Source: an uncultured Gammaproteobacteria bacterium (lineage in GTDB: Bacteria; Pseudomonadota; Gammaproteobacteria; JACCXJ01). Taken from it: 64,000 nucleotides of DNA. Under the pieces are notes generated by a model. It made no database searches, was not told where the DNA came from, and saw only the letters and a list, made by a program, of their open reading frames with translations. Each line of letters begins with the position of its first letter. Positions within the stretch are counted from its first letter, which is position 1. Shown here in pieces: positions 742 to 23,894 of this stretch. A program made the position numbers and the translations under genes. The stretch spans positions 256,001 to 320,000 of the forward strand of contig CAVXTM010000001.1 in assembly GCA_963764725.1 (NCBI GenBank), read 5' to 3'.

Positions 742-1239
742 ATGGCAACGGTTACCCTCAAAGGCGCCCCGATACATACCAACGGCAATTTGCCGGCGAT
801 CGGCAGCCAGGCCCCCGATTTCACCCTCGTAGACGGCGCACTAAATGATGTCACCTTGGCGACATACCAGGGCAAGAAGAAACTACTGAATATCTTTCCA
901 AGCCTCGACACACCCGTGTGTGCCGCGTCCGCCAGGCGTTTTAACGACGCAGCGAAAGGTCACGGCGATGTGGTCTTTTTGATGATCTCGGCGGATCTAC
1001 CGTTCGCAATGACACGCTTTTGTAAGGCGGAAGCGACAACTAACGTGATCCCACTCTCTTTGATGCGATCGCGAGCCTTCGCTCGGGACTACGGTGTTTT
1101 GATCGAGGACGGTCCTTTTGCGGGAGTCACGGCGCGGGCTGTCGTGATCCTGGATGGAAAAGACCGGGTTATATTCACACAGCTCGTCCCGGAAATCGGC
1201 CACCAGCCGGATTACGATCGCGCATTGGCAGCACTTTAG
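742..1239 (+). CDS. tpx: thiol peroxidase (atypical 2-Cys peroxiredoxin)
   Basis: FPSLDTPVC, SADLPFA..RFC, ARAV motifs; AGGAG RBS upstream. Confidence 0.95.
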   Translation: MATVTLKGAPIHTNGNLPAIGSQAPDFTLVDGALNDVTLATYQGKKKLLNIFPSLDTPVCAASARRFNDAAKGHGDVVFLMISADLPFAMTRFCKAEATTNVIPLSLMRSRAFARDYGVLIEDGPFAGVTARAVVILDGKDRVIFTQLVPEIGHQPDYDRALAAL

Positions 1240-1372
1240 AAAGCGGTTCGCACTTTTTCACTCCTGTCGCGCCGCTTGCGGCGGAGGAGTGGACCTTCCT
1301 GATGGCCCAGACCTGCGCGGCTAGTGCGGGTACTAGCGTCCATCGTTCTCAAATTCCTGGTCCAAACAATAT

Positions 1373-1440
1373 TTATTCCATATAGCTATATAAAAATAGA
1401 AATATAGTCTTTTACCTAATATATCTTCCGCGCTAAAGTG
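1373..1440 (+). promoter_or_regulatory. AT-rich CysB/Cbl-like (LysR) box plus putative -10 (TAAAGT 1434-1439)
   Basis: Very AT-rich tract TTATTCCATATAGCTATATA... upstream of sulfate-uptake genes; 14/20 identical to a second copy at 5803. Confidence 0.65.
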
Positions 1441-1506
1441 CTCGCAATGGCAGCAGCCCTGTGAACCGACGACCGTATCACGTTACTTTGGCTAGAGATC
1501 TCTATC

Positions 1507-1695
1507 ATGCAAGGCAATCGCGCGAATGTCCCCCTTGGGATCGGTCAAACCTCGCCTCTCTCGGTCGAGGACATCCGTTTGGCGCTCCAGGCGCTTCACT
1601 ACGGCGCCGTGGAGATCACCGTCCATAACGGACAAATCGTGCAGATCGAGCGCAAGGAAAAGCTCCGTGCTTCCTCCGCCTCTGCAAGACAGTAA
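1507..1695 (+). CDS. YezD/DUF2292 (OscA-like) small sulfur-starvation protein
   Basis: LHYGAVEITVHNGQIVQIERKEKLR matches the family motif; first gene ahead of porin and sbp. Confidence 0.85.
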   Translation: MQGNRANVPLGIGQTSPLSVEDIRLALQALHYGAVEITVHNGQIVQIERKEKLRASSASARQ

Positions 1696-1720
1696 AATCG
1701 GAACTGACCAGATCGGCCTA

Positions 1721-1795
1721 TTAACCCCACCAGTTCACTGGAGGTAAAGACAGATGGCATTTAACCAAGAGCTCACCGGGCCACCGGAGGTTCTC
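1721..1795 (+). repeat. two tandem hairpin units CAC-CRG-NNCA-CYG-GAGGT
   Basis: CACCAGTTCACTGGAGGT (1728-1745) and CACCGGGCCACCGGAGGT (1774-1791), each preceded by TTAACC, with a compensatory stem change. Confidence 0.7.
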
Positions 1796-1817
1796 GTAAA
1801 AATAGGAAATTATTTCT

Positions 1818-3225
1818 ATGAGAAACTCCACGCTCACACTCACTCTCCTCGGTGGGTTCGCCACGGGTTTTCATGCTTCACTCGCAGCGGAGGAGGCCAT
1901 TTCGCCCGCGGTACAGCAGCGCATCGACGAGCTCGACCTCAAGGTGCGGACGCTCGAGCGGCGGCTCGAGGTCGATCAGGAAACCAAGCTTGCCGACAAG
2001 GCCAAACAGACGGCCACGGTCTCGGCTGGGGCAGATGGATTTGCGCTCAAGTCCACCGACGGGGCCTTCCAGCTCAAGCTACGCGCGCTCTTACACGCAG
2101 ACAGCCGCTGGTTTTTTCGAGAGCTTTGACTCGGGGACCGACGACACCTATTTGCTCCGGCGCGTGCGCCCCTACATCGAGGGCACGGTCTTCAATATCT
2201 TCGATTTCAAGATCATGCCGGATTTCGGCGGCGGCAAGACGGTCATCCAGGACGCCTACGTCGACGCGCGCTTTCTGCCCTGGTTGCAGATCAAGGGCGG
2301 AAAGTTCAAGACACCGTTCGGCATCGAGCGCCTGCAGTCGGCCTCGGCCATCCGTTTCGTCGAGCGGGCGCTGCCCAATAACATCGTGCCGAACCGCGAT
2401 ATCGGCGGCGAGTTCCACGGTGATATCGGCAGCGGGCTCTTCACCTATTCGGCGGCCGTCTTGAACGGGTCCAATGACGGCCGTTCGAGCGACGACGTAG
2501 GCGACATCGACAACAACGTCGACAAGGACTTCGCCGGCCGGATCTACGCTCATCCATTCAAGGACACGAGCATCGTGCCCTTGCAGGGCCTCGGGATCGG
2601 TTTCGCCGCGAGCTACGTCAACGCCGGGGGCAGCCCGAGCGAGCCCAATTTGCCCAGCTACAGGACTTCGGGGCAGGAGACGTTCTTCAATTATCGCGGT
2701 ACCACCTTCTCGGATGGTGAACGGCTCCGGCTCTCTCCGCAGGGATATTACTACTATGGTCCCTTCGGGCTTCTTTGGGAATACGTCAACGTCTCCCAGG
2801 ATGTCGCGCGCGACATCGACGGTGCGACGCGATCGGGCCAAGTCGACAACGATGCCTGGCAGGTGGCGTTCGGCTATGTGCTCACGGGTGAGGACTCCAC
2901 CTACAAGGGCGTAATACCAAAGAGCCCCTTCTCGTTCCAAAGCGGCACCTGGGGTGCGTTCGAGCTGATGGCGCGCTATAGCGAGCTCAGTATTGACGAT
3001 GAGGCCTTTGCCGCTGGCGACGACTCCTTTGCAAATCCCACTGAGGCGGCTCAGAAGGCGCAGGCCTTCGCTTTTGGCTTGAACTGGTACCTCAACCAGA
3101 ACGTGAAGCTGGTTTTGAACTATGAACAAACGATGTTTGACGGCGGCGGGGGCGGCACGCCTGAAGCACCCAACGACCTCGACGACGAGAAAGTGGTGCT
3201 GGGCCGGGTCCAACTCGCTTTTTGA
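1818..3225 (+). pseudogene. OprO/OprP-family anion-selective porin, +1 frameshift in T6 run at 2112-2117
   Basis: Signal peptide and coiled coil in ORF 1818-2129; barrel (LRRVR, GKFKTPFGIE, GLNWYLN, terminal QLAF) continues in the next frame; removing one T joins them (..SRWFFESFD..). Confidence 0.85.
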
Positions 3226-3255
3226 TCCATTCCAATGAAGCCAAGGAGAAACGCT

Positions 3256-4272
3256 ATGTTTACAAGAGAAGGTTTGCTCGCACTGACCGTCACCACCTTA
3301 GTGTTATCGCTGATCAACCCGCTAGCATCGTGGGCCAAGGAGATCCGTTTGCTCAATGTCTCCTACGATCCGACGCGCGAGCTGTACCAGGAGTATAACG
3401 CGGCCTTCGCGAAACACTGGCAGGAAAAGACCGGCGATACCGTGACCATCCAGCAGTCGCATGGCGGATCGGGTAAGCAGGCACGCGCCGTGATCGACGG
3501 GCTCGAGGCGGATGTGGTGACCCTGGCGCTCGCCTACGACATCGATGCGATCGCGGAGAAATCCGGGCTCCTGCGCAAGAACTGGCAATCCGATCTGCCG
3601 GACTCGAGTTCCCCCTACACCTCCACGATGGCCTTTCTGGTGCGTAAGGGTAACCCCAAGGGGATTAAGGACTGGGATGACCTCGTTAAGCCCGGCGTCT
3701 CGGTGATCACCCCGAATCCCAAGACCTCCGGAGCCGCCCGCTGGAACTACCTCGGCGCCTGGGGTTACGCCCTGCTGAAATCGAATCGTGACGAAGCCAA
3801 GGCCAAAGACTTCATCGCCAAGCTCTATAAGAACGTGCCGGTGCTCGATACCGCCGCGCGCGGCGCGACCACCACCTTTGTCCAACGTGGCATCGGAGAT
3901 GTGCTTATCAACTGGGAGAATGAGATTCTGTTGGCCGGCAGGGAGTTAGGGCCGGATAAGTTCGACATTGTCGTGCCGCCAAGCAGCATCCTGGCCCAGC
4001 CTACGGTCGCCGTGGTCGAAAAGGTCGCAGACAAGCACGGCACGATCGAGGCCGCGCGCGCCTATCTTGAGTATCTCTACACCAAGGAAGGCCAGGAGAT
4101 CGTCGCCAAGCACTTTTACCGGCCGGTGGATGCGGAGGTGGCGGCCAAATACGCCTCCCAGTTCCCGAAGCTGACGTTGTTTACGCTCGCGGAAATAGTG
4201 GGCGATTGGAAGAAAGCCAATCAGGTCCACTTCGCCGATGGTGGGCTGTTCGACCAGATCCATGGACAGTAA
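3256..4272 (+). CDS. sbp: periplasmic sulfate-binding protein
   Basis: [42 protein letters not shown]; AGGAG RBS before ATG 3256. Confidence 0.95.
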
Positions 4273-5970: not shown

Positions 5971-7773
5971 ATGCCACCTACCATCCAGAAGCGCCCGTCT
6001 CCCAGCCATTCCCCGATCCCGGGGTTCGGACTGACCTTGGGCTACACGATGATCTACCTCAGCCTGATTGTGCTGATCCCGCTCGCTGGGGTATTTGTCA
6101 AAGCAGCCGGGCTCGGTCTTGACGGCCTCTTGCAGATTCTCGGTTCGCAACGTGTACTGTCGGCGCTGAAGCTTTCCTTCGGAACGGCGCTGATCGCGGC
6201 AGCCATCAACCTGGTCTTCGGCATGCTCGTGGCCTGGGTATTCGTGCGCTACGAGTTTGCGGGCAAGCGGCTCTTCGATGCGACGATTGATCTGCCTTTC
6301 GCGCTGCCGACCGCCGTCGCAGGCATCGCCCTGACGGCGCTCTACGCGGGCAACGGCTGGGTCGGCCAGTTTCTGGAATCGCTGGGCATCAAGGTGGCCT
6401 ACACGCCGCTCGGCATCGTCGTCGCGCTGACTTTCATCGGCCTGCCGTTCGTGGTGCGCACGGTGGAGCCGGTGCTGAGGGACGCCGAGAAGGAACTGGA
6501 GGAGGCTGCCGCCTCGCTCGGCGCAACGCGCTGGCAGACGGTGAGCCGGGTTGTCTTTCCGGCCATCCTGCCCGCGCTCTTGACCGGCTTCACGCTGGCC
6601 TTCGCGCGCGGCGTCGGCGAATACGGATCGGTGATCTTCATCGCCGGCAATCTGCCGCATGTGTCCGAAATCGCGCCGCTGCTCATTGTCATCAAGCTGG
6701 AGGAGTATAATATGGCGGGCGCCACCGCGGTGGCAGCCGCCATGCTGGTCATTTCCTTCGCGCTATTGCTGGTGATCAACGCGCTGCAGGCGTGGACCAA
6801 CCGCCACCGGACGCAGCCACCATGTCGAACCCGCTCTGCCTCATCCTGTGCTTCAGGGAGTTGGAGCATGAGTCCGCAGATCGACCACTCGCTGCTCGAT
6901 CCGCCCGAGCTCCCGTTCGAGCCGCTGATAGAGCGCAATGCCGTAATCACCGAGCAGCCTTGGGTCCGCTGGATTCTGACGGCCGGCGCGCTCACTTTCC
7001 TGATGGTGTTTCTTCTGCTTCCCCTGGTCGCCGTCTTTACGGAGGCCTTGCGCGGCGGCTTCAAGCTGTACTGGGATTCCTTGAAAGAACCCGACGCGCT
7101 GGTGGCGATCCGGCTGACCCTCACCGTCGCTGCCATCGCGGTGCCGCTGAACCTTGTCTTTGGCGTGGCCGCGGCCTGGGCCGTCACCAAGTTCGAGTTC
7201 CGCGGCAAGTTCTTCCTTATCACGCTTATAGACCTGCCGTTTTCGGTGTCGCCGGTGGTCTCCGGGCTGATCTACGTGCTGATATTCGGCGCGCAGGGAT
7301 GGTTCGGTCCTTGGCTGGCCGCGCACGACATCCACATCATCTTCGCCGTACCGGGAATTGTGCTGGCCACGGTGTTCGTGACCTTTCCCTTCATCGCCCG
7401 CGAGCTGATACCGCTGATGCAGGAGCAGGGCACGGACGACGAGCAGGCGGCGCTGTCCTTGGGCGCGAATGGCTGGCAGGCCTTCTGGCATGTCACGCTG
7501 CCGAACATCAAATGGGGCCTGCTGTACGGCGTGCTGTTGTGCAATGCCCGCGCCATGGGCGAGTTCGGTGCGGTCTCCGTGGTCAGCGGCCACATCCGCG
7601 GCGAGACCAATACCATGCCGCTGCACGTGGAAATCCTCTACAACGAATACAACTTCGCCGCAGCCTTCGCCGTGGCCTCGCTCTTGGCCGGGCTCGCCCT
7701 GGTCACGCTCGCGTTGAAGTCCTTCCTCGAAGCACGGCACGGCGTCGAGCTATCGGCCTCACATCGTCATTGA
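5971..7773 (+). CDS. cysTW: sulfate ABC permease, CysT and CysW in one reading frame (CysW ATG with GGAG RBS at 6868)
   Basis: CysT motifs [27 protein letters not shown]; CysW motifs [32 protein letters not shown]. Confidence 0.9.
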
Positions 7774-23807: not shown

Positions 23808-23894
23808 TGGTGCCGAGAGTGGGAATCGAACCCACACGGGGTTTCCCCCACCAGATTTTGAGTCTGGCGCGTCTGCCTGTTCCGCCACCTCGGC
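23808..23894 (-). tRNA. tRNA-Leu (CAA)
   Basis: GCCGAGG acceptor stem, CCAGA-CTCAAAA-TCTGG anticodon arm, long variable arm, GGTTCGATTCC, encoded CCA. Confidence 0.97.

Follow-up and report, generated by a model that had tools for sequence, protein, structure and literature searches.

A conserved hairpin motif downstream of oscA as a candidate translational gate of sulfate-uptake operons

The oscA locus and its two hairpins

The window, by which we mean the whole stretch of 64,000 nucleotides analysed here, carries, in this order, gcvH, tpx, yezD/oscA, a Porin_O_P gene, sbp, genes for a TOBE protein and an EAL protein, and a cysT/W-like permease ORF (Table 1). Relatives of the yezD product are named in their sources either 'sulfur starvation response protein OscA' or 'YezD family protein'. 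In P. corrugata, oscA and sbp/cysP have been reported as a single transcriptional unit (Viti et al. 2009, as cited in PMC3596284 and PMC2996968), and the same two articles (PMC2996968, PMC3596284) portray OscA as a conserved protein that is required for the sulfur-starvation and chromate response and has no known mechanism. Both hairpins considered here lie in the 122-nt spacer that separates the yezD stop from the porin ATG (1818).

Table 1. Features around the oscA-porin junction of the window (positions are those of the window)
Feature	Position	Strand	Details
yezD/oscA (62 aa, DUF2292)	1507..1695	+	Pfam PF10055, E 3.6e-15; stop at 1693-1695
Hairpin 1, divergent motif copy	1724..1745	+	-6.4 kcal/mol folded alone
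Hairpin 2, consensus-like motif copy	1767..1794	+	-12.8 kcal/mol folded alone
Predicted hairpin over porin start	1793..1822	+	-8.0 kcal/mol, z -2.43; also in the 135-nt fold
Porin_O_P gene	1818..3225	+	PF07396, E 6.7e-27; first gene past the hairpins
sbp, sulfate-binding protein gene	3235..4272	+	Pfam SBP_bac_11, E 6.1e-43

Several features of the surrounding genes deserve a brief comment. The porin gene is broken up into two frames, with ORFs at 1818-2129 and 1852-3225, and its run of six T at 2112-2117 corresponds to TTCTT, one base fewer, in the nearest relative, a locus from a Chromatiales MAG (L001; YezD 95% identical) in which the frame is intact; the split is either a real frameshift, that is, a pseudogene, or a homopolymer assembly error. 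Upstream of yezD, an AT-rich stretch (1365-1440) contains the palindrome-like TATAGCTATATA and is almost unchanged in L001. This stretch is probably the promoter/regulator region of the operon, and a CysB-type site within it would be a guess; a sigma-70 scan of the same stretch gave a minus-strand match only. Further downstream, the ORF at 5971-7773 (600 aa) includes two BPD_transp_1 stretches and looks like CysT and CysW joined in one frame, with no stop between them.

When folded alone, the two hairpins adopt the same two-tier shape. The inner stem of hairpin 1 is formed by CCAG (1730-1733) and CUGG (1738-1741) around the loop UUCA (1734-1737); it is flanked by A1729 and A1742 and followed outward by CC/GG pairs (GG 1743-1744), with GGAGG at 1740-1744. 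In hairpin 2, CCGG (1776-1779) pairs with CCGG (1784-1787) around the loop GCCA (1780-1783), and an internal loop, C1774 and A1775 opposite A1788, leads to an outer helix of 6 bp (1768-1773/1789-1794), GGAGG occupying 1786-1790. The two copies are spaced 46 nt apart. A sequence-only reading of this DNA had placed the hairpins, whose inner stems span 1730-1741 and 1776-1787 of the plus strand, just so and had pointed to a compensatory change in the stem, and on both counts it was right, the third stem pair being A-U in the first copy and G-C in the second. Such a doublet is hardly expected by chance: the pattern ACYRGNNNACYRGAGG has two matches when both strands of the 64-kb window are searched, solely the two hairpins, compared with a mean of 0.04 in shuffled sequences, and none of 100 shuffles reaches two.

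Other parts of that reading fared less well. It had taken the 'CAC' flank to be fixed, and hairpin 2 of L001 has AAC instead, the only invariant part of this flank across the family being the A that adjoins the stem. Antitermination had been envisaged as well; a terminator scan of 1200-3300 gave no site between 1696 and 1817, and, as regards an intrinsic terminator or attenuator, neither hairpin is followed by a U-run, the next letters being UAAAGAC and UUCUCGUAAAAA. Between the window and L001, the hairpins differ in a loop base of hairpin 1, in the unpaired N9 of hairpin 2 and in one A-to-G substitution that keeps a G.U pair, and the 22-nt spacer between the hairpins differs by 5 changes; this pattern is not strong evidence because the two genomes are too close.

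Conservation and pairing constraint across oscA loci

A genome scan with the YezD alignment matched 599 stretches, of which 574 were confirmed as relatives by tblastn, and the best 80 of the at least 574 were analysed. This sample is dominated by Pseudomonadaceae and Azotobacter, with only four other lineages, namely the Chromatiales MAG (L001), a Verrucomicrobia MAG (L012), Methyloversatilis (L016) and a bin labelled Rhodocyclaceae (L017). In the site scan, only the closing C and G of the inner stem, together with the AG that follows, were prescribed, the two middle pairs being left free. Under these settings, the motif is present downstream of oscA/yezD in 62 of the 80 loci (the best 80 of at least 574), with 64 sites in all, or 66 when the two window sites are included, and its carriers include Pseudomonadaceae, Azotobacter, Methyloversatilis and the Verrucomicrobia and Chromatiales MAGs. 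All oscA-linked sites lie on the oscA strand, 12-155 nt past the oscA stop, and the hairpin, as read in the 200 nt that follow each oscA stop, has the consensus CCCGA-CYGG-ANNA-CCRG-AGGG. A single copy follows oscA in 59 of the 62 motif-bearing loci, among them L011, which has a second copy elsewhere; tandem copies are found in L001, 46 nt apart, and in L016, 47 nt apart. In the window, L001, L012 and L016, the porin gene stands between the motif and sbp (oscA-motif-porin-sbp); pseudomonads have oscA-motif-sbp. By tblastn, sbp lies downstream of oscA in 79 of 80 loci, the sequence of the remaining one (L005) stopping too early, and sbp is conserved downstream of oscA and the motif across all lineages examined. 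A tblastn search of 72,556 plasmids with YezD gave no match at E<=1e-3.

In the 18 remaining loci of the 80, the motif was not found (L013, L019, L022, L030, L032, L041, L044, L052, L053, L054, L056, L063, L067, L068, L073, L076, L079 and L080). On a quick maximum-likelihood tree of Sbp (79 rows; L005 and L050, which have no long sbp match, are omitted), presence and absence of the motif require at least 10 changes. Together, these gains and losses and the 18 oscA loci without the motif indicate that it is dispensable. In three of the loci without the motif, L063, L076 and L080, CCCGACCACGGGC is found at the hairpin's place, ~15-30 nt past the oscA stop, as if the inner stem-loop had been deleted, and the short ORF MNRYQYCRCNPRMPA is retained; the same CCCGACCACGGGC remnant occurs in L067 and L079, where the short-ORF pattern was not detected. 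In L016, the oscA stop is separated from the first of the two motif copies by a stretch with a G+C-rich inverted repeat (GGCGGAC...GTCCGCC, 3178-3230) and a T-run close to it, so that the motif there may follow a partial terminator, in the leader of porin-sbp.

The 66 sites align without gaps, and all loops are 4 nt long. Columns A10, C11, G14, C19, G22 and A23 are invariant, and C7, C8, G13, A18, C20, G24 and G25 are at least 90% conserved. The shared architecture comprises an outer C:G helix, an internal loop with N-A opposite A, an inner stem of 4 bp, an NNNA tetraloop and GAGG in the 3' arm, and the structure tested was ....((((..((((....)))).))))...... Standard pairs fill 93.4% of the 472 pair cells compared with 88.6% in column shuffles, a control that takes no account of relatedness and in which 0 of 500 replicates reach 93.4%; when the partners are slid by 1-3 columns, the fraction falls to 33-52%. 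Changes on both sides are seen in 5 of the 8 pairs, and the four inner pairs show no mispair at all in the 59 distinct sequences. Folding eight representative sites alone gave the same two-tier hairpin in every case.

The covariation itself is modest. Pair 12-21 is U.G in 29, C-G in 16 and U-A in 14 of the 59 distinct sequences and never C/A, varying by single steps via U.G, and its state has changed at least 15 times on the Sbp tree. Pair 13-20 is G-C in 57 and A-U in 2, the latter being hairpin 1 of the window and of L001, so that, downstream of oscA, this one lineage alone shows a full double change of the inner stem. An RNA on the plus strand is favoured because U.G, the commonest state, would be A.C on the opposite strand, and because the oscA-linked sites share one orientation. 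The proposal that a conserved RNA motif follows DUF2292 genes is therefore upheld, with the motif in 62 of 80 loci, no inner-stem mismatch and a detectable constraint on pairing. The hairpin appears to be metastable rather than dominant, given that, in a context of +/-80 nt, the inner stem belongs to the minimum-energy fold at 34 of 66 sites.

Covariance models reinforce these conclusions for one hairpin more than for the other. Model R1, which was built from the 66-site alignment, window sites included, finds in the window only the two hairpins on which it was trained, with 28.1 and 23.0 bits (hairpin 1 being the 23.0-bit hit), the next hit scoring 13.1 bits. Over 472,045 nt of loci, both strands, R1 recovers the 64 training sites (E <= 0.0014) and adds a new one, in L011, at 2661-2692 (-), with 22.7 bits, followed by a hit of 16.3 bits. 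Model R2, derived from 62 sites of other genomes with the window and L001 sites left out, ranks hairpin 2 first among its hits in the 64 kb (22.4 bits, E 8.3e-4; the second-best has 11.3 bits). Hairpin 2 is thus independently recognised as a member because R2 finds it without training on the window. In the same scan of the window at E<=10, hairpin 1 is not listed. We regard hairpin 1 as a divergent copy; its membership rests on flanks identical to those of hairpin 2 (A, A and GGAGGU), on a loop of the NNCA type, on its position 46 nt upstream of hairpin 2 and on the tandem parallel in L016.

The element matches no described RNA family that we could find. A gathering-threshold scan of the whole window with Rfam 15 returned only a tRNA (23811-23894); at E<=10, the region 1240-1900 gave two chance-level hits, neither over the hairpins, and at E<=5, ten motif-bearing loci gave nothing at the motif. 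Thus, no Rfam 15 family explains the motif in the window or in these loci, which answers a possibility that the sequence-only reading had raised against itself. In the full-text literature searched, a coverage that excludes most subscription journals, no RNA element is described at oscA/yezD: DUF2292 is mentioned only incidentally, and the papers on oscA, Pseudomonas and sulfate, judged by title and the start of the abstract, present no RNA element. The stem-loop is apparently undescribed so far.

Shine-Dalgarno sequence, short ORFs and the porin start

The 3' arm together with the outer helix spells a strong Shine-Dalgarno sequence, (G/A)GAGG(G/U), which pairs with an interrupted anti-Shine-Dalgarno-like CC-NA-CY of the 5' arm, and the A.A/N interruption keeps the helix weak. 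GAGG is present in the 3' arm at 63 of 66 sites. Much of the sequence conservation of the stems is accounted for by a fixed Shine-Dalgarno sequence with its complementary arm. An ATG, GTG or TTG starts 3-13 nt after the GGG at 49 of the 66 sites and at the other 17 there is none. As in Shine-Dalgarno-sequestering hairpins in general, the ribosome-binding sequence is paired within the stem, GGAGG lying wholly in the 3' arm (in the window, at the positions given above). That class also has the start codon of a real ORF 5-10 nt past the Shine-Dalgarno sequence, and start codons at Shine-Dalgarno spacing follow the motif at the 49 sites and at the L011 rhodanese gene described below. The motif differs from the generic class in that its sequence and shape are conserved across distant lineages and in that several copies, hairpin 2 among them, have no start codon behind them.

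In most pseudomonads, the start codon at Shine-Dalgarno spacing opens a short ORF containing Cys/Met codons, or else a 5-6-codon ORF that overlaps the start of the former. Of 63 motif-bearing sources, 36 have a short ORF that ends in R-M-(R/C)-x-stop and in many cases contains 1-3 Cys codons, as in MNTHRHRCCRPRMCD and MSTHLYHRCCWRMCR; examples between the motif and sbp are L015 3215-3262 and L007 290-379. The Arg-Met pair is nearly always encoded as CGAATG, a fixed string that suggests a constraint beyond coding. Judging by its codons and its place, the pseudomonad short ORF may be a Cys/Met-sensing leader peptide for sbp. The window, L001, L012 and L016 have no such Cys/Met leader ORF, which sets these loci apart from leader-peptide attenuators. 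In mycobacteria, polycysteine short ORFs have been presented as cysteine-responsive attenuators that are leaderless (bioRxiv 10.1101/834739). The resemblance is that the Shine-Dalgarno sequence of the pseudomonad motif drives a Cys/Met short ORF upstream of a sulfate-uptake gene; the differences are that a structured Shine-Dalgarno sequence precedes the pseudomonad ORF, that the ORF is missing from the four loci just named and that no attenuator or terminator was seen.

An additional copy is found in L011. Its stem is CUAG/CUAG, with both middle pairs changed, and 8 nt separate it from the downstream ATG of a gene with a Rhodanese domain, which is followed by a hexapeptide transferase gene (CysE-like) and is divergent from oscA; relative to oscA, the copy sits ~270 nt upstream, within the leader of the divergent gene. 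This location at the ribosome site of the rhodanese gene implies that the element is more than a 3' structure of oscA and can also provide sulfur genes with a structured ribosome site.

In the window itself, a role as Shine-Dalgarno sequence is not evident, and the same is true of the first hairpin of L016. There is no start codon within 13 nt of hairpin 2. Hairpin 1 is followed by ATG 1754, from which a frame runs for 236 codons out of phase over the porin; a translated ORF from this ATG was dropped as a candidate, the ATG being replaced in L001. Nor do the GGAGG boxes act as the Shine-Dalgarno sequence just before the porin, as had been supposed, because they end 73 and 27 nt before ATG 1818, distances too great for a porin ribosome site. 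The putative site AGGAAA (1804-1809) is better placed than either of them.

The porin start would itself be structured. In the predicted hairpin over it, 1793-1798 pair with 1817-1822, so that AUG 1818-1820 and part of AGGAAA would be paired, and the outer 7 bp are identical in L001. Two bases at its foot, C1793 and U1794, belong to the outer helix of hairpin 2 as well. With +/-80 nt of context, the inner stem of hairpin 1 has a pairing probability of 0.96 and that of hairpin 2, which faces competing pairings, one of 0.03: in longer folds, the 5' arm of hairpin 2 pairs with 1715-1719 and its GGAG with CUCC 1826-1829, inside the porin codons. Given these competing pairings, a factor that stabilises hairpin 2 could conceivably alter access to the porin start.

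Candidate functions of the motif

So what could a conserved RNA element, constrained in its pairing and fixed in strand and in position after oscA, be doing there? The reading that we favour, although we put its chances at no better than even, is that the hairpins are tandem copies of a cis-acting RNA element on the oscA-(porin)-sbp mRNA that acts as a translational gate. The folded hairpin would hide the ribosome-binding sequence; a trans-acting factor, or the ribosome that finishes oscA, would open it; and ribosomes could then load in the intergenic region. We infer that the motif controls translation, with sulfur status as the signal. The window copies, behind which no start codon is conserved, would act on porin/sbp expression as factor-binding or ribosome-loading sites, possibly by competition of hairpin 2 with the predicted pairings that clamp the porin start.

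A special case of this gate is that OscA/YezD itself binds the hairpin, of which the window has two copies, as its own operator, and so exerts feedback on the translation of sulfate-uptake genes. We consider this unlikely, notwithstanding the tight linkage: 64 of the 65 sites in 472 kb of loci come no more than 155 nt after an oscA stop, and neither oscA nor the motif is present in the sbp and cysPUWAM regions of E. coli K-12 (best 8.4 bits). This linkage is partly built into the search, as only oscA neighbourhoods were sampled, and in 18 of the 80 loci no motif was found near oscA. The invariant unpaired A (columns 10, 18 and 23) and the sequence-fixed closing pairs would suit a hairpin recognised by a protein, yet the fixed stem sequence is also explained by complementarity to the fixed Shine-Dalgarno sequence. 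The protein itself offers few clues. An AF2 model of YezD from a 36-sequence alignment (mean pLDDT 73.7) predicts a helix at 20-28 and a beta-hairpin at 33-51, and a Foldseek search of this model against the PDB gave a best E of 2.3, AbrB/MazE-like swapped-hairpin DNA binders coming first at E 2.3-4.2, which is not significant. A YezD profile searched against PDB sequences found nothing relevant (TRAF3 at E 0.07 was discarded), the ESM Atlas gave no usable hit, and a search among longer relatives for fusions yielded one 137-aa DUF2292 protein and nothing informative. Should OscA/YezD (60 aa) turn out to be a new kind of small RNA-binding translational regulator, which we think improbable, the tandem window sites would bind an oligomer and couple sulfur status to the translation of the porin and the binding protein.

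Rather than a gate, the motif might be an intercistronic processing or stability element, either a site of RNase cleavage or a structure protecting the oscA mRNA at its 3' end or the porin/sbp mRNA at its 5' end, by which genes of the same operon would reach different levels. It does sit between the cistrons of one transcript, at a variable distance to both neighbours, it is kept at the 17 sites where no start codon follows, and there is no terminator-like U-run behind it. A mere protective stem, however, needs no fixed sequence, no fixed unpaired A and no GAGG in 63 of 66 copies, and the use of the motif as a ribosome site at the rhodanese gene and the short ORFs points to translation; accordingly, we view this explanation with considerable doubt.

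Could the hairpins instead form a small riboswitch? Guanidine-II (mini-ykkC) riboswitches consist of two small tandem hairpins that bear Shine-Dalgarno sequences and ligand-binding ACGR tetraloops, and the paired hairpins of the window, L001 and L016 are similar in being small, in their tetraloops and in the Shine-Dalgarno sequence of the 3' part. Two Shine-Dalgarno-bearing hairpins at spacings of 46 nt (window, L001) and 47 nt (L016), a conserved internal loop and the sulfur-gene context would all suit cooperating hairpins that sense a sulfur-related metabolite or ion. The motif departs from guanidine-II in its NNNA loops (UUCA, GCCA, ACCA and others), in mostly being one hairpin (59 of 62 loci are single-copy downstream of oscA), in the sulfur-uptake context and in having no Rfam hit, and it is not a member of that class. 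The tetraloop is variable save for its last A, the element is very small and no Rfam riboswitch model matches, all of which makes a riboswitch very unlikely.

Copies that are perfect palindromes (CCGG-N4-CCGG) bring to mind an operator in double-stranded DNA, bound by a transcription factor such as a CysB-type regulator. This reading is least likely of all, close to negligible, because CTGG-N4-CCGG, the most frequent form with 29 of 59 distinct sequences, is no palindrome yet a valid U.G pair, no C/A combination occurs, all 64 oscA-linked sites share one orientation relative to oscA, and the site lies inside the operon, the AT-rich promoter-like region being instead upstream of yezD.

Several known elements were compared with the motif and set aside. 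CsrA/RsmA sites present GGA in a hairpin loop, with an A(N)GGA core; the motif likewise is a short hairpin overlapping a Shine-Dalgarno sequence, with GGA in many copies, but this GGA is in the stem or junction and not in the loop, and 14 of 59 distinct sequences read CCAGAGG, without GGA in the 3' arm, so that the motif falls outside this class. ANTAR targets are two tandem hairpins with hexaloops in which the first base is A and the fourth is G, and the 4-nt loops of all 66 sites rule out an ANTAR antiterminator target. The loop of 4 nt also disposes of a T-arm mimic, and a K-turn was rejected as column 9 is not conserved. A bacterial SECIS or readthrough signal was discarded, the oscA stop here being TAA and the distance from stop to hairpin ranging from 12 to 155 nt, and so was a sigma-54 promoter, for which the GG/GC spacing is wrong by eye and which is absent from the window copies. 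The closest analogue in terms of gene context is the sul1 RNA motif, which Weinberg et al. 2017 (PMC5737381) list as an orphan cis-regulatory candidate before sulfate-transport and sulfur-metabolism genes. The present motif is an orphan sulfur-gene candidate of the same sort and differs from sul1, since the Rfam 15 scans (E<=10 for 1240-1900 of the window, E<=5 for the ten loci) gave no sul1 hit.

When all these considerations are taken together, the motif is most likely a gate of sulfate-uptake operons that locks a Shine-Dalgarno sequence and so controls translation. If it proved to be only the structured ribosome site of a leader ORF, it would be a modest addition to the catalogue of RNA motifs. 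To our knowledge, the control of sulfate assimilation in Gram-negative bacteria has been described almost entirely as transcriptional, through CysB and its relatives. A motif found between oscA and the sulfate-uptake genes in Gammaproteobacteria, Betaproteobacteria and a Verrucomicrobia MAG alike points to sulfur control at a post-transcriptional level, and it provides a concrete, mutable target of 20-30 nt for probing the role of OscA.
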